From a virus: a stretch of 64,000 nucleotides of DNA. The notes beneath the pieces were generated by a model. It searched no databases. It was not told where the DNA came from and worked only from the letters and a program-made list of their open reading frames with translations. The stretch spans positions 96,001 through 160,000 of the IMG/VR virus record IMGVR_UViG_3300035696_001556. One strand, 5' to 3'. Shown here in pieces: positions 2,769 to 63,553 of the stretch. The number at the start of each line of letters is the position of its first letter. Position 1 is the first letter of the stretch. Both the position numbers and the translations under genes were made by a program.

Positions 2769-3380
2769 GTGCCTATATCTAATACATTGATAGCTAGTGC
2801 TATTAAAGGCTACATGGCTTTTGAAGGTTTCACCGGTAGAGATATGGGAAGCCTCGCAGATGCTATTGGTATCGGAGTCTTTAAGGATATTTGCACTCCA
2901 AGTATAACCTCTGGTTTAATGACTGGCACTGTAGGGCCTTTAGGAACAGCTACAAGCCTTTCCGTGGCTGGGATAGTACCTACGGCTATGAGCGGAATGA
3001 TGAAGGCTAAAGGGGCTCAGAATGGTTTTACAGGAAGGGATTTAAGTAAGCTTGCAGACGCAATATCTAATGGGGTGTGCGATGTTTTAATGACAATGGT
3101 ATTGACTGGAACAACAGTAGGTTTAGCAGTAGGAGGCGGTACAGCGAACTTCGTAGGATTAGATGAGAATGAGTTAAGCGCTGACATAAAATTGGCTTTG
3201 CCTGAATTCACGGGAAGGGATATACTTAATCTGACTGATATGATAGCCGCTGGGATAGTTATGCATTTAATGTCCTCCGCTGTTTTTACCGTAGTGGTGG
3301 TTGGAATTGTATCTCCAGTGCCCCCAGTAGGACCTATCGCTATAACAGGGATACCTATAGTTGTACCAGTTGTTAGCTAA
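2769..3380 (+). CDS. Hydrophobic three-repeat virion protein (possible spike tip)
   Basis: GTG start 1 nt after the spike stop. Three FTGRDxxxLxDxIxxG repeats; Gly/Ala/Val rich. Confidence 0.6.
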   Translation: MPISNTLIASAIKGYMAFEGFTGRDMGSLADAIGIGVFKDICTPSITSGLMTGTVGPLGTATSLSVAGIVPTAMSGMMKAKGAQNGFTGRDLSKLADAISNGVCDVLMTMVLTGTTVGLAVGGGTANFVGLDENELSADIKLALPEFTGRDILNLTDMIAAGIVMHLMSSAVFTVVVVGIVSPVPPVGPIAITGIPIVVPVVS

Positions 3381-3391
3381 AAGGATATAAG

Positions 3392-6300
3392 ATGTCTTTC
3401 GAATTTTTTGAATTACAATCTATCGATTTAGAAAACACGGTAGTTAGAAATCCAAGGGTCGGTGCCAGAAACAGGCCTACATCCAGAACTATTGATATAG
3501 GCACTACTGGCCCAGGTGCAACCGGCGTTTATACTGGAGAGAGGGATGTCAATGTTGAATATCTTCTCCAGGGAGCAGTTAATGGAGATGTAATAAAAGC
3601 CAGTTCAGCTATTTTCGATAATCCTGCGGTAACGCCAGCATCATTAAGAGCTAGGGTCATAACAAATGTAACAGGCCTTAACGGATTACAGCCTGCTGAA
3701 ACTATAAATTATGGGGACATAATTCGTGCAGATGGTGATATGGCTTTCTATAGCATTACCGGGATGGGTTCCATTACGGGACAGGAAAGCTTTGGAACGG
3801 TAATATTTCTTAGCCAGGACAACACAACCGCTACAGGAGTCAACTCGCTTCAAGTACGAAAAATAAAACTGGATAGTACACATTTCGAGTATATCATAAA
3901 TCCTACAGGTCAAAATAATTTTTACTATGACGAGAAAAATAGAGACTGGGGTTACAGTGGCACGCAAGGATTTACAGGATGTGTTATAGCAGCTTCTACG
4001 GTACAAAGCTATTTCCAAGGTGACCCACTTACTTTTCAGTTCTATCCGTCTTATTGCAGTACTGCACCAGATGTCACTTCTGTGGACACAACAGCTATTG
4101 ACCCAAAGCAACCGTATGGCTTAAAAGTTCTTGACAACAAGCTGGCTATAGACACACCGTCCATTCATTTGAGCCCTGTGCCATATCCAGATGACGATGA
4201 GAATTTCAGAGTATATTGGGGTCCACAAAATAATTTGGAATTAAAGACCAAAGACATAGACTATACAGTTAATTACACTATAGATCCTGATTACACATCA
4301 GCAAAGCCCCCCTATAAAGACAGGAATGTAGCTTATGTAAAGTTTTTAAATCAGCTTAATGATACTACACAAGTAGATAGCATAGGCTTAGGTTTTCAGG
4401 GAGTATTTAATCTTCATCAGGATCCAAGCACTTCTGCTACCAAACAGCCGACAGCTATAACGAATATCTATCCTAATGCAAAAGGTTTGTCAATAGCTGG
4501 CTCTAATACAGAGTACATTGGAGAAATAGTCCGTGTTGGAGAAGAGGTTAAGCAAAAAAATTTTGACTATAACATAGAATATGACAACGGCATAATAAAC
4601 TTTATAAAGCATAACAGTCTTGAGCTTGATGTACCTAATGTCCTGTACAATCAAAAGCTGATCTGGGATGGTATAAGCGTTATAAAAGGAGTTGGCCTTA
4701 CTGGATTAGTTTCACCGGACAGAAGTGATTGTGTATTACCGTACGCTGTTTCAGGGCTCACCGGTATAGACGGTCCAGTTTTCTTTGAAGACATAGACGC
4801 GAACGATCTTATAGAAGGAACAGATTACATAATAGAATATACTAGCGGTGCCATCAAATTAACGAAACCGCTTAAAGGTAACGAATGCGTACTTGTCTCT
4901 TATTTTGTAGAAGGTGAAGCCGTTGTTAATGAGCCTCTGAATCTAAGCGTTTTGCGTACGGAAAAGTATCCAATCATTGAATCCTCTGTTACCATAAAGA
5001 AAACTTATTCTAATATAAGTACATTAACAAACGGGATCAATATCTTAGTTGAAGGTGTGGATTTCTCGGTATCTTATCTTACAGGCAAGATTACGCTTCT
5101 GAACCCTGCCATAGGCGAAAATATTAGTTCACTTCAAATAAGTTATACACCTTTCGCCCAAGTACAGTGTATCTTACAGCCGGTTCCGTCTGATGACACA
5201 AACTACAGAATTACTATCCTTGATGATGTAATGACCACAGTCGATCCTTTTAATCTGAAGTTTGAGATAGATAACCCAACAGTTTCTATCCCTGTAGTGG
5301 ATCCGTTTGGAGTTTCACCAACTACGTACAGCAGCTCTATCATCCCTGGCAGTGTCTTCTCTGTTAAAGCAATAGGCGAACCAGGATATGGATTTGATAA
5401 TCTTACTCCAGATCAAATGATAGCCATAGGAATGACCGGCTTAGAAATAATGGGATTGGCTACGCTTCTTGGAAAAACAGATGCTGAATTTTATGCATTA
5501 GGAATTACTGGCGTAATTAGTCTGGGTGTTACAGGAATACAGTATTACGATACTACAAATTATACTTATACTGATAGCACAAAATATCTGCAGCTTGATG
5601 GCACCGAAAACGCAAGTAAACCAAAGCCAGATATCAACGACATTATCACTGCCTCTTATACGTATGTGGCAGATGTGCTACCTTATACTCCAGTACAGAT
5701 TATTTATCCAGTGCTTGATCAGGATACCAACACTATCTTGATAGAAGGTTTCGATAAGACGGATATTATTTATTCTGGCATGACTTTCAGAATTGATAAC
5801 TCGGATCCCCAGAATACTTACTATTTCATTGTATCTTCCGTGACTTATGATGGTTTGAATACTTTAGTCACTCTGACAGGATCATTTTCAGAAGAGATTC
5901 GTAATCCGTCTTTTTATCTTTTTGATGACATTGTTGAATGGTATCCTTTACCAACAGGTTCTAGAGTGGACTCTACAGCAACTCTTGGATCAGATACAGT
6001 AACCATTAAAGGCAACGCCTTAGAATCTTTGAATTTGTTAAGACCTAAAACTTTGATGATGGTAGATAACACAAACATTTATGAAGTTATGACTACCACA
6101 GTAGTTGATAGTGAGACTTTGAACGTTAAGATATTCCCTAATCTCATGAATGAGTATCCAGGGAATATTCAGATATCCGAGCCTATATACCAAGTTGGGG
6201 ACACGACTGTTAATTCAGAGTATCCTATAATAACAGACCCACCTCATCCAGCTTTCACAATCAGATACATAGCCCCAGTTAATGCTATTTATGGATTTGC

Positions 6301-9300
6301 TACTATTTTCATAGACGCAGATCAAATAACTTTGGCGGAGATTGTCGATAACCAGGTGTTCTCGTATCCTCCTTTTGTGTACAGCTCTTTTGCCAGCATA
6401 TATGATTTAGCCCAGGCGATACAGAATACCGTGAATCAAACCTATCAAACGAATCCTTTCACGCTCACATCGTCAGACGGAGTGGTGCAGTACTATCTTG
6501 GTACTGGCTTCTGGGATGCAGACTTAGTAATACCGTTTGATCAGGACAGTCCTGTGGTGATACCTACGGAAGGATACACCATAACAATAAATCAGGAAGT
6601 TTTCAGATACATAGTAATTAGAACATATAAGGATGCCACGAACTTTCTTGTGGAGAGAAAAGATCTTACTGTGACGACCCCTCCATATTTCTCTGCAGGG
6701 CAGCTGTTGGCTTTTAAAAGTAAATCTTCAGGTAATACTAGCTTCTATCAAATCTCTGGAGCTACAAGTGTGTTTGAACAGCCTCCTTCCGGAATTACCG
6801 GTGTAGTAGATACTCAGGTATCTTTCAAGGATTCTTTCAGAGAGAACATGATAGATCCTTACATATATAAATATGATGGTGTCAACTGGATGCCATTATC
6901 ATTAGTTTATATAATAGATTATGTAAACTCTAATATAACTTTCAATGGGACTTCTGATTTCTTTAAAGTCGGAGCGCTACTAAACTTTAACGGCGGTTTT
7001 ATTTATAGGATAAACAGTGTATCTACTGTTGGTGCCACAGTCACATTAAATTTGACTCCAGCTATAAGCTCCAGTTTGAATAATATCCTGTCAGTAAGCA
7101 TATCTGACATGCCTATTTATTTGAACGAAATAACCAGTCAGCCATATTTTGTAATAGATTACACGCTCCCACCTGATCGCTCTGGAGAAGCCAGAGTAAC
7201 AATAAACGATAGCTATCTTACTATTACGGAGAGTCTCGATGGTTATCCAAACATGACAGCCATGGTTCCGCTGCCTTATAACAAGGCATCTAATCTGGAT
7301 AACCTATCACAATTTGGAGATTATTTGGCGCGTTTATCAGGTGTTGATATCAGAGGATCTATATTTGTTGATACGTCAGCATACGATTCAATATTCATAG
7401 CGGGAGGTAAGGCACTTAAGTTGGTTCCAACCCAACAGGGACCAGTATCGTTGTCTGCATCCATAGCTGTGTCTTATCCAATATTCCAGATTAATTACGT
7501 AGCTCCTACAGGCAATGTTGATGGAGATATTTATATCCCCAACGATGGATCAGCTGTTATTCAACTTAGTGAATGGAAAAAGACAGACAAATCAGGCACA
7601 TTAGTGACTTATAATGTCCCTTATGACGGGATACCGATAGTTAATATCATATCGATGATACGTTCAGTACCTTCCATAATTCCAGGATATAATCCTTGGT
7701 CTGTTTCAAACGAAAACTACGATAGCTATTATGCCACGAATAAGCCTTATTATTACAACATCATACCATTTGCAAGTCAGTCGCATGTAGCTTCAACCTC
7801 TATGCCCTATTCCGTCCAGGCTACTCAGAATCCAGTGTCCTGGTACAGCGTGCCGATACTGAATAGAAATGTCCTGACAGAGGGAACGGATTACAGCATA
7901 GATGGTACACAGGTTGTTTTGAAAAATCCTATACAAGTAGGAGAGAGATATGAAGTAAGCTACCTTGGTGTGAATGATCTGGCAGAATATGATGGGGAAA
8001 CCATCAGATGCTCGTGCAGATACTTTTCTACTGTTCCTGCTGGTTATCAAATAAGTGTTTATATGGACTATCTAAATCCCGATCAGTACTATATACAGAA
8101 ACTTACTGAAAGAACTTTCCTTGAAATAGTTACAGTACCACAGATACAAGATATCCTTCAGCAAGCTGGTAATAGCGCGGGCATGGGAAACAGCAGCGGC
8201 AGTGACGATACAACCCAGAATTACCAGGGTGGGCTTGTAGATCTCTACTATCAACTAAAAGACGAACAGATCAAACAACAAATATATCTTAAGGTTTTTC
8301 AATGGTATAAACAAAGACTTAGAAATTTTGCTGCAGAAGCTCAGGTTACTATGGGTATTGAATATGGTCACAGTAATCACATAGGTGTAAATGAAAACGG
8401 TGTGTTTAACATGCAGGACCAGTACGTTGAGGGAAATAACTATACACTAACTAAAGCATCTGATTTTGACCAGCTTAAAAACGGCTTTTCTAAATTTTTC
8501 CCAATCAATTATACGGATTCAGCGCCTCAGAAATATCCTCGTTTTACAAATAACTATGAGTCCTATAACGAGGTTTTTTGTTATAATGTGGAATACCATG
8601 ACAAGAATGATAGCTTCATAAGTAAAGAGGGCAGAGTTCTTTCTGCTAATCCTTACTGGGCGGATATTCCTCAGGCCTATGGTCCCGATACTGGTGGTGT
8701 CACCGGTTCAAGCTTAGATTTTGACATCTTACCATATACGCAGACTACTTCCGTTATTGCTGGCGGGACTATGTACTATGTTCCGTACAACGAGGATGAA
8801 AAACTTTTCAAGGTAACCGATGATAATTATAAGTTCTTAAGGAGGATATCCGTTGGGGACTCGGTACAACTATATGGCTTCCAGAATACATACAACATAG
8901 GAGCAATAGAAAACCAAAGCAGTGTGCCGAACGGAGCTGTGGCTATTAATTATGTGGTTCCGATACCAGGTTCTACCGGTGTTTATACAATTCCTATGAC
9001 TTACGATGGACCAGCTCCTACGAAAACTACTCCTAATCCTTCACCAGGCACTCAACAGATATACGGTACATATGCAAATACAACAGGGGATGCGGGAGTC
9101 ACTTCTACATACGCGGCTGTAGGGGAGGACTATCCATTAGGAACTCCGGTGGTAAAAAACACAGTTTCTGGAGCCATAATAGGACTTAGTTATAAAGTGG
9201 CCAAAACTTTGGTTCCTTTTGACAGGCTAATTCTAAGTAACGCATATTTCACAGAATCGGGTGTGCCGACATTCGTAGTTAAACCTGATTCCAATGGAGT

Positions 9301-12300
9301 TTATACATACTACTATTATACAAAAGATTTCCCTTGGGAGAATCCACAGCAACATAGCTGGAGCTTAAGCGATCTGGAGATACAGCTTCCTAAGGACGGG
9401 CAAAATCTAATAGTGACAAGGAACCAGAATAGTGATTATCCAGTTATTTTTCCTGCCTGGGATGATGAATACAATCTTGGAACAAAAGTAGTTGGATCCA
9501 AGATAGTTGATCAGAAAACTGGAACTGATACTATAAGAAAATCATTCTCTTTCGAAGATCTATTTAGTCTTGATGACGATGACAAGCTATTCACGGTGTA
9601 TGAAGGAACTTATAACGATATAACGGGCTTGTGGGAAGTTAGAAATACCATAACCGTCAATATGAAATATTTGAACTTCTTCGATGAAAGAAGTGTATCA
9701 AGAGTTGTTGATTCTATTAAATACAATGTAACAGGCTCTAAATATCTGATCCCGGTACCACCTTTCTTTGTCGAGATATCCAAAATATTTGAAAAGAAGG
9801 ATAATTTAGGGACAGATAGATTGTTCTATGTTTCCTTTGAGGATTATTACGATGCCAGCCTTTCTGGAGGATACGGACAAAGTATAGTTATGAGAACTAG
9901 AGATAGGAACAGCTGGGTCCAGTATGAAGTTACTTCAACCAGTACGCCTCCTGTAGCTCCGGAGTATGGTTTCTCATCCCCAGACATCTATACTAACTTC
10001 TATTATCCAAATAATTTGTTCTTAAAGCTTTTGGTAGAAAAACAAGTGTGGTTGACGGAACTCAATATCATCAAAGATCTTTTTGATACAAATAATAAAT
10101 TGAAAAGAGCTTTTGAGGTAAATGTTCAAAATGCTGTAACGACTACTCCTGGACCATCAGAATTTCAGGCATATTTGTCTCAGGTTTCTGAAAGTTCCGG
10201 TATCAATAATATCGAGGCTGCGATCAGCTCCTATAGCGAACATCTGAAATTCTTGTTGGATAGGTCTGATACTGTTCATCCATATCTCGTTGACAATACA
10301 TCTGGTCCACTGTATAGGACTATGATGGAAAGCCAGCCCATAACTATACCCATACAGAATTCGTACAACCAAGCTGAAGCTGCAAATATAGCCTATACTG
10401 CGTTCCAGGGGGAGTCAAATTATTATTTCAGTTTAAACGACTACTATTATCAGAAGTGGCAAAATGAGTATGAAAAATGGGCGTTAAGTCTTGAAGCTGG
10501 AAGTGTTTTTCAGAAAGATGCAAGAGACAACTATCAGAGCAACTATGATATAAATATAGGCTTCAACACATTCCCAGCTATTAAAATGTCCGTAATAGAT
10601 CAAGGATCTAAGGCAGCATTTACTATATCCGATGCTAAGTATTTGGTATATTATAACATACTCGAAACGGCAGATACCAGCGCAGATGAATACGATGATG
10701 CTACTCTGTTGATAACATATTTGGTGTCTGGAGATACCAACTATACTTTCATTTCTTTTGCTCTTCAAAACTACCCTACTTTACAGGCTCTGGTTGAGGA
10801 TATAAATGCACGCTGCAATGTAAACTCACAAGGTGTCAATTTAGGTGTGCAATTCATATCAGCATCTTGCGTTTTCAATTACTATCCGTATAGAAACTAT
10901 TCTCCACTGTATATACTTAGAACTTATAGAAATGTTGCAAATAATGATTCTAATGGCACTGATTTTTCATCTGGAGATGGATGGACTGTGCTCTCTACTG
11001 ATCCTTCGATTGATGATCGTATATATGTCTCCAATGTTTTGGATCATAGAGAATATGATGCAAGAGTTTTCTTTTTGAATAGGATAGGTTTCAAGTCTGA
11101 TTTTCTTTCTATTGATGGGACTAACTACAATGTCTTTCCTTACTATCTACCTGGGGACGCTAATTCTGGAAAAGATCTTTTGGGAGACAGCAAAGCAGGT
11201 CCTATATCTGTTTCAGGTAGATGGGCTACTGATGCCTATGGCTTAACTGGAGCACAGAGCGTAGATTATACGACTGAATTAAATGTAATGACAATCTCAC
11301 CAGCACTACCTACTGATACTTTCATAAGATATGAATTCCTTGATTATCTTAATGGTCCTGAACAGCTTCCTATACAGCAAACTCCTAGAAATCCTACTTA
11401 TGAAAAAAGTCAGGCAGATCTAACAAATATAGGGTATGACGAGACGACACAAAGTTTAGTAGAAGCTTATCCTTTGATTACAGGACCTTATACTAATTTC
11501 TCGCCCACGGGTCCAGATAATTCGAATTACGACACACTGATGCAGTGGACATCCTATGCCCAAGGATATACAGGAAGTCAGGCTCCTCAAACAGAAGTAA
11601 TAAGAGATCTTCAGATAGAGCTTATGTCTCAAGACCTAACTACGCCAAATAAGTTTAATAAGATATTCTTTACTTTCAGCTTGAGGCAATATTCCACTAT
11701 CAACGAGTTGGTGCATGCTTTAAATACAAACAGGTATACAACAGTTTTGAATCCTGATGGTATAACATATACCGCGCAATTAGCTACAGGAGCTTCAGGA
11801 AGCGTATATTTCTCAGCTGCTTTAGTTGGGTCACCAGACATACAGGGGAATATGAAGACCGTTGACTTAGTTACTAATTATGTTAGGCAGGAGATATATG
11901 TCTCTAATTATACGTCCTACACTTTAAACTATACATATACAGATATAAACGGTGCAATTGGAGTTCCTACTGTAATTCCTAACTCTGTATCAGTAAATAA
12001 GAGTTTCCCAATTGGATGGCAGCTCAGAGAACAAGATTCTTTGAGCACCAATACACAGCTTAACTTCAGGATAGATCCTAAAACATATAGTCCAAGCTAT
12101 TCTTATCGTTTTGTGCCAGACAAGCCTGATTTGGCACGTACGAATACATTCCTGTCTCAGAAGGAAGATATCTTAGCTTTTGATTTGTACAGCTGGGATA
12201 CTAATGCATATTATATGATTAAGAATAATGTACTCTATCTGAAAAGTGATACTGTAGCTCAAGTACAGATACCTCTTTATAAAACTCAAAGCTTGGATAC

Positions 12301-13981
12301 AACAATAGACCACCCAGAAGAGACTAACAAATTAATAGATGTTATCAGGTCTATTAATGATAATGGCTTGTGCAACAAAAAGTTTTTTGCTAATTTGAGA
12401 TTTGGAAGACTTTATAATTCTGATTTTGAATACACTTATTTCCCGGATACAGCTATATGGGCAGGCGGCGATGGCTGGGTACAGCTCTATCCTCCTGCGG
12501 GATTGGATTATTTATATCTCGACAAAGACAGTGTACTTTCGATTTACTCTGAAGGTCCAAATTTTAATTACGAAGTAGATACTCCAGGTATTACCGGTTC
12601 ATACGATACCAATACAGTTTATAACTCAGACAACTTAACATTAAGTGCAAACACTAGAGCTTTTAGCTTGAACTATAATCCAAGTTATGACGTTACTTCG
12701 GCTAGTTATAGTGTAAACCAAACAAGAATAGAACTTATAAGTAATTACGATGTCGGAGTAACAGGACATACCTTTGTGCTTGATGTAAACTTCTCGACGG
12801 CAACAACGCTTAATGCAGTAATAGCTTCTATAAATGGAAGTGGATTTTTTACTGCTAACCTGTCCTGGATCGATGGAAATGCGACATCGTCTACTTTACT
12901 ATCAGTAGGATTGACAAACATCCCATCTAGTGGTGCTTATGTCAGAATGCTAGGGCAGGTTAGCTATACATTGAGTAGTAGTATTACGATATCAGATCTA
13001 GCTAGCGAAATAAATAATGATAGTCTAGGTACTGGTTTCTCGGTGGATACTACGACAGCTAACTATGCGGGATATCTAGGTATGAGATCAGATCTGCTTA
13101 TACCTACCAGTGGACTTGTACCGCTAATGGCTAATAGTATATGGGCAGATTTTAGAAATATTCAAGCAGTGTCTGTTTTAAACATGAGTCATACAACCCA
13201 GACAAACGGTACAGCAATCGGACCAGCAGGAGAGGCTTGTACAGTGACTTTGTCTGGAAATCAAATAACATTTACTAAATCTACTCTGTCTTTGACGAAA
13301 ACAAGTTCTGATTATATAGGGGATTATTACGAATACGATAATCTAAGCGATAGGAATATACAAGACTTTTTCAATGCAGCAATGAGCATAGATGGTTACT
13401 ATCTCAATAACAGTTCAGCCAATGCTGGCTTTGCATACAAAAATGGATCACTTAACATGGACATAGCTTTGCTTCCTATGCCAGGAATAAGCTACGGTAA
13501 ACTGAGGTTAAGAGACAAAAATGAAGCAGATCCAATTAAAGCCTCAAGCGTAGGTACCATATCTCTAAATGTTAACGATCCTGAGATTTTAAATACACAC
13601 GTATATTTAGGATTTTTAGGAGATATCAATTTTTATCAGATATCCGATTATGATTTGTGGAAGCAGTATGTTCTTGTAAAAAGAAGGTTGGGTATGTCTT
13701 GGGACCAAAGCTCCCCAGATTATTATGTGCCAGATAATTTGTATAGCTTCGGGAGTTATGAGTACACTTTGAATCTGGTTAAAAACGGTAAATTCTTATA
13801 CTATCTCAAGTATACTAGATTCAATGAACTGGCAACTAGCTTGAGCGAAGAAGACTTATATAATAACAAATACCTCTGGATATTTTTAAAAGCACACAGG
13901 GAGATAGGATGCGACTCAAAAGTGATAGCTCTTCAAAAAAAGATCAAGAGCGACAACCAGAAAGCCCTTCTGCTTCAGTAA
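3392..13981 (+). CDS. Giant (3529 aa) multidomain baseplate/tail structural protein
   Basis: SD AAGGA. T/S/Y/N-rich beta composition with recurring modules (EGxDYxIxYxxGxI; FxIxYxxP; TxxxLxxxIN). Lies within the baseplate operon. Confidence 0.8.
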   Translation: MSFEFFELQSIDLENTVVRNPRVGARNRPTSRTIDIGTTGPGATGVYTGERDVNVEYLLQGAVNGDVIKASSAIFDNPAVTPASLRARVITNVTGLNGLQPAETINYGDIIRADGDMAFYSITGMGSITGQESFGTVIFLSQDNTTATGVNSLQVRKIKLDSTHFEYIINPTGQNNFYYDEKNRDWGYSGTQGFTGCVIAASTVQSYFQGDPLTFQFYPSYCSTAPDVTSVDTTAIDPKQPYGLKVLDNKLAIDTPSIHLSPVPYPDDDENFRVYWGPQNNLELKTKDIDYTVNYTIDPDYTSAKPPYKDRNVAYVKFLNQLNDTTQVDSIGLGFQGVFNLHQDPSTSATKQPTAITNIYPNAKGLSIAGSNTEYIGEIVRVGEEVKQKNFDYNIEYDNGIINFIKHNSLELDVPNVLYNQKLIWDGISVIKGVGLTGLVSPDRSDCVLPYAVSGLTGIDGPVFFEDIDANDLIEGTDYIIEYTSGAIKLTKPLKGNECVLVSYFVEGEAVVNEPLNLSVLRTEKYPIIESSVTIKKTYSNISTLTNGINILVEGVDFSVSYLTGKITLLNPAIGENISSLQISYTPFAQVQCILQPVPSDDTNYRITILDDVMTTVDPFNLKFEIDNPTVSIPVVDPFGVSPTTYSSSIIPGSVFSVKAIGEPGYGFDNLTPDQMIAIGMTGLEIMGLATLLGKTDAEFYALGITGVISLGVTGIQYYDTTNYTYTDSTKYLQLDGTENASKPKPDINDIITASYTYVADVLPYTPVQIIYPVLDQDTNTILIEGFDKTDIIYSGMTFRIDNSDPQNTYYFIVSSVTYDGLNTLVTLTGSFSEEIRNPSFYLFDDIVEWYPLPTGSRVDSTATLGSDTVTIKGNALESLNLLRPKTLMMVDNTNIYEVMTTTVVDSETLNVKIFPNLMNEYPGNIQISEPIYQVGDTTVNSEYPIITDPPHPAFTIRYIAPVNAIYGFATIFIDADQITLAEIVDNQVFSYPPFVYSSFASIYDLAQAIQNTVNQTYQTNPFTLTSSDGVVQYYLGTGFWDADLVIPFDQDSPVVIPTEGYTITINQEVFRYIVIRTYKDATNFLVERKDLTVTTPPYFSAGQLLAFKSKSSGNTSFYQISGATSVFEQPPSGITGVVDTQVSFKDSFRENMIDPYIYKYDGVNWMPLSLVYIIDYVNSNITFNGTSDFFKVGALLNFNGGFIYRINSVSTVGATVTLNLTPAISSSLNNILSVSISDMPIYLNEITSQPYFVIDYTLPPDRSGEARVTINDSYLTITESLDGYPNMTAMVPLPYNKASNLDNLSQFGDYLARLSGVDIRGSIFVDTSAYDSIFIAGGKALKLVPTQQGPVSLSASIAVSYPIFQINYVAPTGNVDGDIYIPNDGSAVIQLSEWKKTDKSGTLVTYNVPYDGIPIVNIISMIRSVPSIIPGYNPWSVSNENYDSYYATNKPYYYNIIPFASQSHVASTSMPYSVQATQNPVSWYSVPILNRNVLTEGTDYSIDGTQVVLKNPIQVGERYEVSYLGVNDLAEYDGETIRCSCRYFSTVPAGYQISVYMDYLNPDQYYIQKLTERTFLEIVTVPQIQDILQQAGNSAGMGNSSGSDDTTQNYQGGLVDLYYQLKDEQIKQQIYLKVFQWYKQRLRNFAAEAQVTMGIEYGHSNHIGVNENGVFNMQDQYVEGNNYTLTKASDFDQLKNGFSKFFPINYTDSAPQKYPRFTNNYESYNEVFCYNVEYHDKNDSFISKEGRVLSANPYWADIPQAYGPDTGGVTGSSLDFDILPYTQTTSVIAGGTMYYVPYNEDEKLFKVTDDNYKFLRRISVGDSVQLYGFQNTYNIGAIENQSSVPNGAVAINYVVPIPGSTGVYTIPMTYDGPAPTKTTPNPSPGTQQIYGTYANTTGDAGVTSTYAAVGEDYPLGTPVVKNTVSGAIIGLSYKVAKTLVPFDRLILSNAYFTESGVPTFVVKPDSNGVYTYYYYTKDFPWENPQQHSWSLSDLEIQLPKDGQNLIVTRNQNSDYPVIFPAWDDEYNLGTKVVGSKIVDQKTGTDTIRKSFSFEDLFSLDDDDKLFTVYEGTYNDITGLWEVRNTITVNMKYLNFFDERSVSRVVDSIKYNVTGSKYLIPVPPFFVEISKIFEKKDNLGTDRLFYVSFEDYYDASLSGGYGQSIVMRTRDRNSWVQYEVTSTSTPPVAPEYGFSSPDIYTNFYYPNNLFLKLLVEKQVWLTELNIIKDLFDTNNKLKRAFEVNVQNAVTTTPGPSEFQAYLSQVSESSGINNIEAAISSYSEHLKFLLDRSDTVHPYLVDNTSGPLYRTMMESQPITIPIQNSYNQAEAANIAYTAFQGESNYYFSLNDYYYQKWQNEYEKWALSLEAGSVFQKDARDNYQSNYDINIGFNTFPAIKMSVIDQGSKAAFTISDAKYLVYYNILETADTSADEYDDATLLITYLVSGDTNYTFISFALQNYPTLQALVEDINARCNVNSQGVNLGVQFISASCVFNYYPYRNYSPLYILRTYRNVANNDSNGTDFSSGDGWTVLSTDPSIDDRIYVSNVLDHREYDARVFFLNRIGFKSDFLSIDGTNYNVFPYYLPGDANSGKDLLGDSKAGPISVSGRWATDAYGLTGAQSVDYTTELNVMTISPALPTDTFIRYEFLDYLNGPEQLPIQQTPRNPTYEKSQADLTNIGYDETTQSLVEAYPLITGPYTNFSPTGPDNSNYDTLMQWTSYAQGYTGSQAPQTEVIRDLQIELMSQDLTTPNKFNKIFFTFSLRQYSTINELVHALNTNRYTTVLNPDGITYTAQLATGASGSVYFSAALVGSPDIQGNMKTVDLVTNYVRQEIYVSNYTSYTLNYTYTDINGAIGVPTVIPNSVSVNKSFPIGWQLREQDSLSTNTQLNFRIDPKTYSPSYSYRFVPDKPDLARTNTFLSQKEDILAFDLYSWDTNAYYMIKNNVLYLKSDTVAQVQIPLYKTQSLDTTIDHPEETNKLIDVIRSINDNGLCNKKFFANLRFGRLYNSDFEYTYFPDTAIWAGGDGWVQLYPPAGLDYLYLDKDSVLSIYSEGPNFNYEVDTPGITGSYDTNTVYNSDNLTLSANTRAFSLNYNPSYDVTSASYSVNQTRIELISNYDVGVTGHTFVLDVNFSTATTLNAVIASINGSGFFTANLSWIDGNATSSTLLSVGLTNIPSSGAYVRMLGQVSYTLSSSITISDLASEINNDSLGTGFSVDTTTANYAGYLGMRSDLLIPTSGLVPLMANSIWADFRNIQAVSVLNMSHTTQTNGTAIGPAGEACTVTLSGNQITFTKSTLSLTKTSSDYIGDYYEYDNLSDRNIQDFFNAAMSIDGYYLNNSSANAGFAYKNGSLNMDIALLPMPGISYGKLRLRDKNEADPIKASSVGTISLNVNDPEILNTHVYLGFLGDINFYQISDYDLWKQYVLVKRRLGMSWDQSSPDYYVPDNLYSFGSYEYTLNLVKNGKFLYYLKYTRFNELATSLSEEDLYNNKYLWIFLKAHREIGCDSKVIALQKKIKSDNQKALLLQ

Positions 13982-60143: not shown

Positions 60144-60569
60144 ATGAAATTGTCAAATCTTCAGATCATGAACCCGCAGTTTGTCCCTGCTCTTGAAAAG
60201 CTTCTCAAGAAAGAGATGCCTATTTCTACATGTGAGGCTCTTGCTGTGGCTATAACGGAGATAGAAAAGCAGGGTGCCCTACTTCAGAAAGTCCGCAACG
60301 CTTTAATTGATAAATACCTTGAGAAAGACGATAAGGGTAAACCGATAGTCATAAATGGCAACCAACCCAAATACAAGAACCCGGAAGCTCAACAGCAGTT
60401 TATGAAAGAATTAGGTGTACTCCTTCAGGAAAGTTTTGAAGTTTCTTTTGATAAAAAAATAGACATATCTGAAGATGAAATTATGAGTGCCCAGGAGTAC
60501 ATGCTGGTAAGAGATTTGGTAAATATCACGAAAAAAACAACAGGTGCCCTTGACATTTCTAGTAAATAG
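60144..60569 (+). CDS. DUF1617-like small helical phage protein
   Basis: AL.KL...EMP...R..LIDKY.EKDDKGKP...F.KEL..LL..E.EV pattern; SD GAGGAG. Confidence 0.6.
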   Translation: MKLSNLQIMNPQFVPALEKLLKKEMPISTCEALAVAITEIEKQGALLQKVRNALIDKYLEKDDKGKPIVINGNQPKYKNPEAQQQFMKELGVLLQESFEVSFDKKIDISEDEIMSAQEYMLVRDLVNITKKTTGALDISSK

Positions 60570-60578
60570 TCATATATT
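60550..60578 (+). promoter_or_regulatory. Sigma70-type promoter TTGACA-N17-TATATT
   Basis: Perfect -35 at 60550-55, 17-nt spacer, -10 TATATT at 60573-78; predicted TSS ~60585. Confidence 0.75.
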
Positions 60579-60584
60579 TGGTAA

Positions 60585-60830
60585 GGCTTGTGTAGCAGGA
60601 AAAACAAAAGCAGACTAAACCGGTGGCGGAACCGGGCAGGCAAGCTACCTCTGTTGAAAGCAACAAGGCATAAGTGCTGAAAAACAAAACGCCATGGAAG
60701 TTTAATAAGGCTCTTCCTAAACTGCTACACTAGATAACATTCAGAACCGAACATGCAGGTTAGCGCATGTGCAGAAAGATCCTACTGCGAAAAGATGGGT
60801 CACAACCGGCTGACCGTAAAACGTTGCCAA
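60585..60830 (+). ncRNA. Candidate structured ncRNA or long structured 5' leader
   Basis: 9-bp closing stem GTGTAGCAG/CTGCTACAC, six further hairpins, two possible pseudoknots and a duplicated GAAAAACAAAA linker. GC-richer than its flanks and starts at the predicted TSS. Confidence 0.6.
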
Positions 60831-60848
60831 AAAAGAAGGAGTCCAACC

Positions 60849-61889
60849 ATGGACACTGCTACAGATTCTTCCACGTCTCTTTCTACTGTCGAAGGCCGCA
60901 TCAGAAAAGCGGCAGAAGTTCTCAAAGCAGATTATAGTGATTTTCAAGAGCTTCTCAAAGAGCAAATTGGTGTTGAACCGAATGACGAGGGGCTACGACT
61001 ACTCAATGCTCAAACCACCACAGAACAAGTAATAATAGAAACCCTCAAAGGCTGTTATCTTCCTGTAAAAAATTCTGAAAAGCTAATGCTGGAATCTTCA
61101 AAAACTTCTTTAAGCCTTCCTGCTGTTGCGGCTATCCTAAAGGGTAGAAATCCTTTTGCTACAGTGCAGGATGCACTTGATAAGTCTTACAAAACAGATA
61201 CCACCGCAAAAGTCGAGAAAGATTCCTCTATCGAAGGAAATGTAATCGCCCACCAGTTTGTTGAACTCGCCAGAGGTCTCCGTGATCCCAAGGGCATGAA
61301 AGATAGAGAATTGCTGGAGCTCTATGACAAAGAGCGCGATTATGAAATTGAACAGGAGTTGCATCGTAGGGCAAATTTCCAGCATTTCGTTGTTCTCAAG
61401 CCTGGTCAAGAGGGTAAAACCCAGAAGGCTATCGATATCGAAATGAGCTTGGACCTGCTTAAAAGATCACGCCGGATAGTCAATCCCACTTTAGTCCGCC
61501 AAGGGGATATATTCGTAAATGTCTATCGGGTTACAGAGCTCAATCCAGAAGATCAGATTTTTGAGATCTGTCCGTTCTGCGGCGAGATCATGTATGACAA
61601 TTATTGTGAACGTTGTGGTGCAGATTTCGGTGGTACTGGGGATGATGAAAAAGCTTTCATCAAGCTCATAAGTGAGAAGGAAAGCTTTGACAAAAACTCT
61701 ATGTCAGACCGCAAGGCAGTACTTGCAAGTGCAAGTAAAGGTCTTATGGATCTTCGTATAACATGGCCAAAAGTTAATAAAAAGTACGAAGAGCTTAAGA
61801 TGCTTGGAGAGCTTCCAAAGCTTAGGAAGAGCCGTTCTCTTCCGTATTCTAAGCCAGCTGATCCATTTCACACCAAAGATAAGATTTAA
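60849..61889 (+). CDS. Hypothetical protein with Zn ribbon
   Basis: SD AAGGAG before ATG 60849; CPFCGE...YCERCG. Confidence 0.75.
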   Translation: MDTATDSSTSLSTVEGRIRKAAEVLKADYSDFQELLKEQIGVEPNDEGLRLLNAQTTTEQVIIETLKGCYLPVKNSEKLMLESSKTSLSLPAVAAILKGRNPFATVQDALDKSYKTDTTAKVEKDSSIEGNVIAHQFVELARGLRDPKGMKDRELLELYDKERDYEIEQELHRRANFQHFVVLKPGQEGKTQKAIDIEMSLDLLKRSRRIVNPTLVRQGDIFVNVYRVTELNPEDQIFEICPFCGEIMYDNYCERCGADFGGTGDDEKAFIKLISEKESFDKNSMSDRKAVLASASKGLMDLRITWPKVNKKYEELKMLGELPKLRKSRSLPYSKPADPFHTKDKI

Positions 61890-62242: not shown

Positions 62243-63553
62243 ATGTATAGAGATGTTTTAGGTTTTTCAATATCGCCCTTTATGCAAAGGGTCATGAATA
62301 TACATGGATTTTTTGGTTCAATCATGCGTACAGGAAAGAAATCGGAAGACAGCAGTAACAAACTTCCTCCCGGAGTACCGATCCCGGTTTTACCAGTAGA
62401 CTATTTGAAAGTTCGTCCAGATAGTTGGATAGGGGGCGAAGGAGCATATGTAGTTCCCGTTGACTCAGATTGGGGACTCTGGTTCAACTTCACCATGAAT
62501 AATCCTTTTAACACAGCAGTCCTTCCTTCTATAAAAGGCATGAATCCTCTTACGGGGCAGCGTGTGAGTGGGTATGATCTTGAAGAGTATCAAGACAAAT
62601 GTCCTGTACATAACAAACCCTTCAGCAAAGGTAATCTTTGTACGGAGTGTGGTTTCAAATGGCCCTATCAGAACTATCTTGCGCATCCTGGAAAACTTTG
62701 GGTCGACGGATTTAGGACTCCGGATGGTAACGTACGCCAGTTTTATTTTACAGAAGAGATGGCGAAATCTATCCCAGAGCTGGTAATTGGTAAAGAAGAT
62801 ACAGTCCCAGCATTTGGATTTTGCTTCTACAAACTCAAGGAGTATGACGGGCATTTTGAAGAAGGAAAGTACGTCAAAAACGAATTTCCAATAAATCCTC
62901 GCTCACAATATAGCTCTTATTGTGGAGGTAGTATAGGAATAGGTACTTCTTGTGCTTCTAGTATGTTTTATTCCCCAAGTCTGAGCACTGATTTTCTTGC
63001 TAAGCCAGCAGATATGGCCAGTAGAAGTGCCCGTTACCGTAAAGGACTAGCAGGACCAAGGAAATTCTCTACTGGAGGATCAATGCTACACATTTCTGGT
63101 GTATCTTTGGACTCAGTATCTTTTAAAACTGATTTGGCGGATGCAGACAGTTCTACAAAGGCATCTTATCTGTCAGCTAGTAATACAGCCTCAATAGAGA
63201 GTGCTTCTAATGGAACTACTCTTAATTTTAGTTCGAGTGCAGATGGTGGAGCTTCGTATGAAAATACTTTGATAGGAGATGATGAGAAAGGCACAGATAT
63301 TTTACGTGAATATGAAAGTCCTTTACGTAAATCCGCAGAGGTGGGCATCGGAGCAGGAGCAAAAATAAAACAAGCTTTTGCAAAAAGCAGTAAGTCTTTA
63401 GAAGACTGGGAGAAGAAACCGGCAGGAGTTATCAGACTGTACTTTGTCTTCCAGGAAGAATTTGAAAGATATGCTGCAGCAGGTTTTAACAATCTCGAAG
63501 GAAATGAAACAGGATACCTTGAAGGTCTCCCAGTAGGAGGATCCCATGAATAA
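62243..63553 (+). CDS. Conserved hypothetical protein with inserted Zn ribbon and Ser-rich linker
   Basis: LPPG...W.GG...LWFNF...NPLTG...QNYL..P..LWVDGF...G.VRQF...GIGAGAKIKQ; CPVH...CTEC. Confidence 0.7.
   Translation: MYRDVLGFSISPFMQRVMNIHGFFGSIMRTGKKSEDSSNKLPPGVPIPVLPVDYLKVRPDSWIGGEGAYVVPVDSDWGLWFNFTMNNPFNTAVLPSIKGMNPLTGQRVSGYDLEEYQDKCPVHNKPFSKGNLCTECGFKWPYQNYLAHPGKLWVDGFRTPDGNVRQFYFTEEMAKSIPELVIGKEDTVPAFGFCFYKLKEYDGHFEEGKYVKNEFPINPRSQYSSYCGGSIGIGTSCASSMFYSPSLSTDFLAKPADMASRSARYRKGLAGPRKFSTGGSMLHISGVSLDSVSFKTDLADADSSTKASYLSASNTASIESASNGTTLNFSSSADGGASYENTLIGDDEKGTDILREYESPLRKSAEVGIGAGAKIKQAFAKSSKSLEDWEKKPAGVIRLYFVFQEEFERYAAAGFNNLEGNETGYLEGLPVGGSHE

Follow-up and report, generated by a model that had tools for sequence, protein, structure and literature searches.

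What does the largest gap between the long open reading frames (ORFs) of a fragment of viral DNA encode? The fragment considered here, referred to as the window, comprises 64,000 nucleotides (nt), corresponding to bases 96001-160000 of the IMG/VR virus record IMGVR_UViG_3300035696_001556. CheckV rates this record of 173,494 bases as 37% complete, and the sequence thus represents only part of a huge phage genome. On the + strand of the window the genes are closely packed, and the gap of 279 nt at positions 60570-60848 is the largest between long ORFs, in agreement with the initial annotation. The latter had described the gap as a structured RNA of ~250 nt and had proposed a phage non-coding RNA (ncRNA) or a regulatory leader. 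Our comparison with related loci indicates that the conserved element in this gap is probably a genuine cis-regulatory leader RNA, which precedes a gene coding for a protein of 346 amino acids (aa). We tentatively interpret it as a translational operator recognised by a protein, likely one encoded by the same operon. Almost all knowledge of huge phages derives from metagenomes, and the way in which they regulate their genes has hardly been explored. Since the element is short, self-contained and located behind an E. coli-type consensus promoter, it is directly accessible to experimental tests.

The conserved element directly precedes a single gene family

Altogether, 54 loci encoding homologues of the 346-aa protein were compared. 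When the leader of the window was aligned with these relatives using blastn, the segment 60742-60850 aligned in nearly all of them, even at a protein identity of 35-40%. As judged by this comparison, the evolutionarily conserved element is formed by the last ~105 nt upstream of the gene (60745-60848), with the structured core located at 60745-60828. Its length ranges from 102 to 113 nt, except for the two loci L002 and L004. Thus, a structured leader read from the + strand is present as proposed, but the conserved unit comprises only the last ~105 nt of the predicted ~250 nt.

With the covariance model R1, the element was located immediately before the homologous gene in all 43 searched sources for which upstream DNA is available (the window included), among which the protein identity drops to ~35%. 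The gene order is likewise maintained, with a NAD-dependent ligase, a large protein and a ~140-aa protein followed by a gap of 210-320 nt and the 346-aa-type gene. In the 173-kb record R1 matches once. Two exact-pattern scans of IMG/VR, pre-filtered on the exact sequence of helix P1 (see below), yielded 169 stretches, and R1 accepted only stretches from gene-carrying contigs. Two of these contigs, with lengths of 131 kb and 470 kb (L155 and L175), were new and had been recovered via the RNA alone.

In the 43 sequences the 3′-end of the last conserved hairpin, P3, is positioned 14-23 nt (mean 18.7) upstream of the start codon and about 7 nt upstream of the Shine-Dalgarno (SD) sequence. Because the distance to both the SD and the ATG is tightly fixed, we favour an uncatalogued leader linked in cis to the gene at 60849, while the free ncRNA that had been offered as the other possibility is less favoured.

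In line with the original suggestion that the RNA belongs to no recognised family, a search against Rfam 15 yielded no match in the window at gathering scores, and none inside 60585-60848 at E <= 10. At the latter threshold the region 60400-61000 gave two chance-level matches, both outside the leader. A blastn search of the locus against the GenBank phage collection was likewise negative. A single-protein scan of IMG/VR retrieved no relative, whereas an alignment query did; the homologues of the 346-aa protein amount to 75 in 90% clusters, all of them metagenomic and on contigs of up to 474 kb, and a profile search of 50% representatives extends the family to 333 clusters.

Two serial pseudoknots and a hairpin are maintained by compensatory changes

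The fold consists of two H-type pseudoknots in series (PK1/P1 and P2/PK2), an A-rich linker, the hairpin P3 and a further ~7 nt, followed by the SD; all elements are on the + strand. In PK1, AACC (60745-48) pairs with GGTT (60758-61), the 3′ strand being located in the loop of P1 (ACATGC 60751-56/GCATGT 60765-70), which results in the first pseudoknot. The second is formed by P2 (GCAG 60771-74/CTGC 60785-88) and PK2 (GATCC 60778-82/GGGTC 60797-60801), the 5′ strand of PK2 residing in the P2 loop. P3 pairs GGC(T)GAC (60808-14) with GTTGCC (60823-28), and contains one bulged T and the 8-nt loop CGTAAAAC. The strong SD sequence AAGGAG (60836-41), which precedes the start codon ATG (60849-51), lies outside every conserved helix and is flanked by A-rich linkers. 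The linkers left unstructured in the fold are A-rich and 6-8 nt and ~7 nt in length.

The initial annotation had advised a covariation test on the regions upstream of homologous genes, and both conservation and covariation were found. In a sequence-only alignment generated with MAFFT, 93.3% of the cells pair, compared to 25-35% when the partners are slid by 1-3 columns. Changes on both sides were observed in 18 of 25 pairs, and none of 500 shuffles reached any of the five measures employed. A second, model-based alignment of 44 rows gave a similar picture, with 91.2% of cells paired and compensatory changes in 20 of 26 pairs. Moreover, RNAalifold recovered P1, PK2 and P3 without guidance.

At the level of individual helices, 99% of the P1 cells pair, and the first P1 pair occurs as AU, GC and GU in 17, 16 and 3 sequences, respectively. 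The inner two pairs of PK1 are paired throughout (100%); within this helix CG is replaced by GC in five sequences (AAGGC/GCCTT type), and AU by GC or UA. P2 shows compensatory changes in all four of its pairs; its paired fraction of 78-84% is an underestimate, as the P2 loop of the subclade of the window is 1 nt longer and was shifted by the alignments. In the sequence-only alignment 98.6% of the PK2 cells pair, with compensatory changes in all 4 pairs counted there, and P3, which contains many G-U pairs, is paired in 94% of the cells with compensatory changes in 4 to 5 pairs. When the pair states were placed on the tree of the downstream proteins, a minimum of 10 changes was required both for the first pair of P1 and for one PK2 pair (42-64), 5-9 for P3 pairs, 4-9 for P2 pairs and 2 for PK1 pairs. 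As the pair states change 2-10 times on this tree, the covariation reflects repeated events and not a single inherited change. Furthermore, 55 G-U cells of the 44-row alignment would be A-C mismatches if the opposite strand were read; therefore, the RNA is read from the + strand. Along with the variable pairs, the MAFFT alignment of 36 distinct leaders contains 23 invariant columns.

These data revise the architecture that had been proposed for the 3′ part of the leader, termed domain 2. Its helices ACATGC/GCATGT and GCAG/CTGC, which correspond to P1 and P2, are real and covary, but they are part of two H-type pseudoknots followed by a bulged hairpin. The two pseudoknot helices (60745-48/60758-61 and 60778-82/60797-60801), both strongly supported, had not been listed. 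Conversely, for the suggested GGTCA/TGACC hairpin with its CAAC/GTTG pseudoknot only 35% of the cells pair, which equals the controls. The alternative pairing GGTTAGC/GCTGACC, which had been taken as a hint at a switch, is paired in 74.6% of the cells versus 73.9% in shuffles; it owes its pairing to conserved columns only and breaks where PK1 covaries.

By contrast with covariation, the folding energy of a single sequence is uninformative for the whole leader and for the core, pseudoknots being invisible to minimum free energy folding. For 60585-60849 we obtained z = -0.82, with 39 of 200 shuffles folding equally well, and the values for the minus strand of the leader (z = -0.59) and for the conserved core alone (z = +0.16) were similar. 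Consequently, the dense pairing ascribed to the whole gap does not exceed chance. Of the two signs that had been named as evidence against a functional RNA, a folding energy no better than that of shuffles was thus found, but an absence of conservation and covariation in relatives was not.

Taken together, the RNA signal is clean: five helices including two pseudoknots have persisted, with compensatory changes occurring again and again, while the protein encoded next to them has diverged to 35% identity.

Variants of the element

Several relatives deviate from the standard arrangement. In L002 (2864-2997) and L004 (2856-2994), where the protein identity is about 50-53%, the P2/PK2 module is present in tandem and the leader is extended to 134-139 nt. 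Here, AGGG/CCCT combined with GAGTC/GACTC is followed by GCAG/CTGC combined with GATCC/GGATC. As the P2/PK2 unit is duplicated in these two loci, the data suggest that the second pseudoknot evolves as a module.

In L009 (IMGVR_UViG_3300046710_000523) the leader occurs twice within 1488-2991. Copy A (1488-1580) breaks off behind PK2, where it passes into an ORF of 446 aa; the encoded protein contains DUF723/DUF4379 treble-clef zinc-finger repeats and resembles homing endonucleases. Copy B (2890-2991) is complete, although much diverged and with a GC content of 0.32, and is located directly upstream of the gene. The arrangement suggests that a mobile gene has entered the leader and that the operator beside the regulated gene was either kept or restored.

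In five further loci (L022, L023, L034, L037 and L045) the motif is found about 1 kb upstream of the protein match. The respective genes code for 594-614 aa, in which a ~270-aa N-terminal extension is fused to the 346-aa-type protein, and the leader precedes the extended ORF. A more distant family member, L466, carries a diverged version in which PK1, P1, PK2 and P3 are readable by eye. One homologue (P0031) is labelled as originating from a 'Candidatus Altiarchaeales archaeon' metagenome-assembled genome; probably, a phage contig was assigned to an archaeal bin, so that the label provides little information on the host.

The upstream part of the leader is confined to one subclade

The region between the predicted transcription start and the conserved core contains the branched domain 1 (60590-60730, + strand) that had been proposed initially. 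It is closed by a helix of 9 bp (60590-98/60722-30) and harbours hairpins at 60620-35, 60652-65 and 60696-717. All complementary segments listed by the initial annotation for the two domains are present, namely 60590-98/60722-30, CCGGT/ACCGG, TGTTG/CAACA and GGAAG/CTTCC in domain 1 and ACATGC/GCATGT and GCAG/CTGC in domain 2, as are the two identical linkers GAAAAACAAAA at 60599 and 60679. Moreover, when domain 1 was folded alone, its energy was better than that of shuffled sequences (z = -2.47), 2 of 200 of which were equally stable.

In blastn, alignment of the segment 60585-60730 was restricted to L053 and L055, the closest two relatives. The resulting alignment of three sequences shows one compensatory and two wobble changes in the closing helix, which remains intact; GGAAG/CTTCC is exchanged for GGTGG/CCACC in L055, and CCGGT/ACCGG is kept, with one mismatch in L053. 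One exchanged pair in L053 and L055 can be accommodated by the suggested GGCG/CGCC pseudoknot, but gaps occur in this part of the alignment. At the corresponding position the other relatives contain unrelated or simple hairpins, or nothing. Hence, domain 1 belongs to one subclade, and the support provided by three sequences is suggestive only. In our interpretation, domain 1 corresponds to the variable 5′ hairpin present between promoter and motif in most relatives, enlarged in this lineage, and probably serves solely to protect the 5′-end.

Between domain 1 and the motif an AGATAAnAT block is conserved, at 60731-60743 of the window and at the same position in L051, L053 and L055. It resembles a -10 box, lacking a -35 partner.

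The promoter and the predicted start of the transcript

As noted initially, the gap is headed by a σ70-type promoter, TTGACA-N17-TATATT (60550-60578, + strand), which matches TTGACA/TATAAT at 11 of 12 positions and predicts a transcription start at ~60585. The left border of the gap is formed by a 141-aa gene (60144-60569; PHROG 1401, function unknown). On the + strand of the 173-kb record the exact sequence occurs only twice, at window positions 60550 and 65470 (G000:C1:156550 and 161470); the minus strand contains a third exact copy, close to base 54 of the record. The same form recurs upstream of the motif in many relatives, e.g., in L008, L016, L025, L030, L041 and L155. In many of them the promoter is 7-27 nt away from the motif, often with a variable hairpin in between, and in several (L008, L016, L027, L042 and L155) the -10 box ends 7-9 nt ahead of it. 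Between the promoter and the ATG no intrinsic terminator was found on the + strand.

The genes downstream of the leader

The gene following the leader (60849-61889, + strand) encodes the 346-aa protein, which contains a four-cysteine zinc ribbon with the invariant residues C241, C244, C253 and C256. Searches of Pfam, PHROG, NCBIfam and PDB sequence profiles gave no significant match for this protein, and the fused or longer family members, including the ~270-aa extension described above, contain no Pfam domain. The AlphaFold2 (AF2) model, with a predicted local distance difference test (pLDDT) score of 81, yielded no fold match with Foldseek against the PDB, with a wide VIA-align search or in BFVD; the best structural match (VIA-align, Z 4.8 over 72 residues) is below the noise level stated for the tool.

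The second gene (62243-63553, + strand) encodes a beta-rich protein of 436 aa, a homologue of which follows the 346-aa-type gene in nearly all relatives and which therefore represents a conserved operon partner. Its conserved residues C120, P121, H123, C133 and C136 form a Cys/His cluster that looks like a zinc site. The AF2 model of this protein (pLDDT 62) gave no fold match, with generic beta-sandwich matches only (Z <= 4.2). Neither of the two proteins provides a hint at a ligand or a pathway. A 236-aa vWA-domain protein is encoded at 63546-64256 and overlaps the end of the 436-aa gene; the vWA gene co-occurs with the two genes in only a subset of the relatives (L002, L004, L011, L042 and L155). 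As downstream of the leader we found neither a reverse transcriptase nor a DEDD/transposase domain, and as the leader alignment contains no hypervariable guide-like segment or loop, a retron, an IS110 bridge RNA and a guide RNA were set aside as explanations. Far upstream, the window contains a single ORF of 3,529 aa (3392-13981) and several further ORFs exceeding 1,000 aa.

A proposed translational operator and its alternatives

We propose that the mRNA initiated at the 60550 promoter, which would encode the 346-aa zinc-ribbon protein and its 436-aa neighbour, carries a compact fold beside the ribosome-binding site that may serve as an operator for a trans-acting protein. Most likely, this protein would be a product of the operon itself, the zinc-ribbon protein being the first candidate. 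In excess, it would bind to the leader and hinder or trap the 30S subunit, resulting in feedback repression. As no conserved helix masks the SD, control would be steric and exerted at the 30S platform rather than by sequestration of the SD. We consider an operator recognised by an operon-encoded protein the best explanation because the element is tied to one gene family and shows no expression platform, because L009 carries a second, complete copy directly before the gene and behind the endonuclease-like gene, and because there are precedents in phages and bacteria: the T4 proteins gp32 and gp43 as well as the E. coli protein S15 repress their own mRNAs (PMC3014915). The restriction to one gene family and the arrangement in L009 also favour a protein-specific operator over a metabolite sensor. 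Nevertheless, we estimate the probability of this interpretation at only about 0.45.

Several observations weigh against it. Judged by their sequences and models, neither operon protein appears to have a recognisable RNA-binding fold or family. The ~23 invariant nucleotides, which include whole P1 base pairs, are equally typical of a ligand pocket or a catalytic core, and the unstructured A/U-rich tract of the T4 gene 32 operator is absent here. In addition, the still more distant family members L467 and L469 are devoid of the canonical motif, and other hairpins precede the SD. In these two loci (L467:700-874 and L469:1330-1503) the upstream gaps measure 213-469 nt and the hairpin is positioned directly before the SD, which may represent a diverged or replaced leader.

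The element could also act independently of any factor, in that the 5′ fold guards the mRNA from decay that depends on the 5′-end or, as a translational enhancer or insulator, keeps the ribosome-binding site open, with no ligand involved. This is conceivable since the motif would constitute the very 5′-end of the mRNA in several relatives and the SD is unpaired between A-rich flanks; in addition, the T4 gene 32 mRNA is exceptionally stable (PMC3014915). However, stabilising hairpins do not require a set sequence, whereas here ~23 invariant positions and two pseudoknots persist across deep divergence, and most relatives already possess a separate, variable hairpin further upstream that is able to do the job. 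We therefore regard a factor-independent role as rather unlikely.

An unlikely reading, in our view, is a new riboswitch, i.e., a double-pseudoknot aptamer for a small molecule or ion, the ligand of which would alter translation initiation or mRNA decay of the operon. One property expected of such an RNA is present, in that the leader is a conserved and covarying domain in the 5′-untranslated region (5′-UTR); it combines strong covariation with a compact, pseudoknotted fold, and numerous nucleotides of its junctions and loops are invariant. Among the small riboswitches, several classes (preQ1, SAM-II, fluoride and guanidine-III) are H-type pseudoknots beside the SD, and the operon proteins show no visible protein-binding function. 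In contrast, among the sequences covered the element is found only upstream of a single gene family in one phage lineage, and none of the 239 pattern matches listed from bacterial and archaeal genomes, for which the exact P1 sequence was required, represents the motif, the matches being due to chance or to coding sequences. Furthermore, no expression platform is visible, as there is neither a terminator on the + strand nor a conserved anti-SD or SD-containing helix, and the alternative pairing GGTTAGC/GCTGACC is unsupported.

A self-cleaving ribozyme or a processing signal that sets the 5′-end, with domain 1 released as a small RNA in the subclade of the window, or else the RNA subunit of a particle formed with the operon proteins, appears improbable. 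Conservation starts abruptly at 60745, the sequence upstream being unrelated among relatives; invariant nucleotides are located within helices, and domain 1 folds better than shuffles, all of which would be compatible with such a role. On the other hand, no Rfam ribozyme model matches even at E <= 10, and the order of the strands (a-b-a′-b′, c-d-c′-d′, e-e′) differs from the nested order a-b-c-c′-a′-d-d′-b′ of ribozymes resembling that of hepatitis delta virus. The lack of a hypervariable guide-like segment also speaks against this reading, and the fixed distance to the SD points to a role on the mRNA. Taken as one proposition, a core that constitutes either a new ligand-sensing riboswitch class or a new self-cleaving ribozyme, confined to a huge-phage lineage and switching on a two-protein operon, is rather doubtful. 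If it were correct, the element would represent a new RNA class, and the operon would mark an unknown phage-specific sensing pathway.

We consider it very improbable that the element is a promoter-proximal RNA acting on RNA polymerase, like the put RNAs of phage HK022, to bring about antitermination through the + strand gene array. In many relatives it is located directly behind a strong consensus promoter, and everything downstream of it is encoded on the + strand, but the tight spacing to the SD and the strict link to one gene are not expected for a modifier of RNA polymerase, and the other exact promoter copy, at 65470, lacks the element, which is single-copy in the record.

Finally, a DNA operator made of inverted repeats, for which ACATGC/GCATGT would provide a palindrome downstream of the promoter, or an N-terminal coding extension starting from the in-frame ATG at 60753, from which the frame is open to 60849 in the window, is extremely unlikely, since the 55 G-U cells are tolerated on one strand only and the pseudoknotted pairings follow no DNA-operator logic, and since the P1 ATG frame is open in only 3 of 43 relatives, occurs in phases 0, 1 and 2 in 12, 17 and 8 cases, respectively, and is not preceded by an SD. 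The longest ORF covering the gene in the window (60753-61889, 378 aa) opens at this ATG inside the leader, which is not the true start. An upstream start was likewise used in the public gene call for L053 (3001-4017, giving 338 aa instead of the 311 aa obtained from the true start at 3082).

Returning to the translational operator, the element would mark a conserved pair of proteins devoid of a known family or fold as something that the phage must dose precisely.

Comparison with known regulatory RNAs

The preQ1-I/II, SAM-II, fluoride and guanidine-III riboswitches are compact H-type pseudoknots with invariant junction nucleotides located in 5′-UTRs near the SD. All of these classes are represented in Rfam; in many bacteria they are found ahead of numerous genes belonging to one pathway, and as a rule the SD is enclosed by the fold. 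Unlike them, the phage leader has one gene partner and a free SD, and matches no Rfam model.

Repression of the E. coli rpsO mRNA involves trapping or blocking of the 30S subunit rather than sequestration of the SD, and a corresponding mechanism is what we infer for the phage leader. The rpsO operator, bound by S15, is likewise a pseudoknot positioned by the SD (PMC3014915). It differs in that its pseudoknot includes the SD and the start region, whereas here the SD remains outside the fold; gene, sequence and organism are unrelated as well.

Among phage operators, the leader of gene 32 of T4, T2 and RB69 (PMC3014915; PMC535899) resembles the present element in that an H-type pseudoknot precedes the start codon of one specific gene by tens of nucleotides; in our case two covarying H-type pseudoknots are located about 50 to 105 nt upstream of the ATG. 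In both systems the regulated protein appears to bind zinc, and the feedback control of translation demonstrated for gene 32 would have its counterpart here. In the T4 gene 32 leader, a single pseudoknot precedes a long A/U-rich tract that is unstructured, contains UUAA(A) repeats, reaches over the ribosome-binding site and serves cooperative binding. In the phage element, two pseudoknots are combined with the hairpin P3 that abuts the SD and fills the interval. The downstream protein is no gp32 homologue, as indicated by the lack of a Pfam hit, the T4 sequence having been compared by description only. The operator of gene 43 of T4 and RB69 (PMC3014915) is a hairpin whose loop is conserved and which is located immediately 5′ of the ribosome-binding site; it thus resembles P3, with its 8-nt loop ~7 nt before the SD. 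In contrast, the gene 43 operator is a single hairpin devoid of pseudoknots and overlapping with the ribosome-binding site, and the protein concerned is the DNA polymerase.

Elements of the same kind, predicted from the same data source, IMG/VR, are compiled in a 2023 catalogue of candidate structured RNAs (csRNAs, 'DNAVirus_X'; PMC10690425). These motifs are intergenic, covary and lie no more than 25 nt from the start of a phage gene; some of them precede GP32 and GP20 genes. The text of the catalogue describes no leader upstream of the 346-aa family and no tandem-pseudoknot leader, and the 8,495 unnamed motifs listed may or may not include the element (PMC10690425). According to a review published in 2010, the T4 gene 32 pseudoknot is possibly the only viral pseudoknot involved in translational autoregulation (PMC3014915).

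In conclusion, since the A/U-rich cooperative tract is absent and the protein is unrelated, the element does not belong to the leaders of the gene 32 family, although by analogy it would work most like the pseudoknot operators of T4 gene 32 and rpsO. It would be a structured 5′ leader operator with a distinct tandem-pseudoknot build, and it matches no Rfam family. If it is indeed an operator, the logic of autoregulation by pseudoknots, as exemplified by T4 gene 32, would extend to a far larger and unrelated group of phages.

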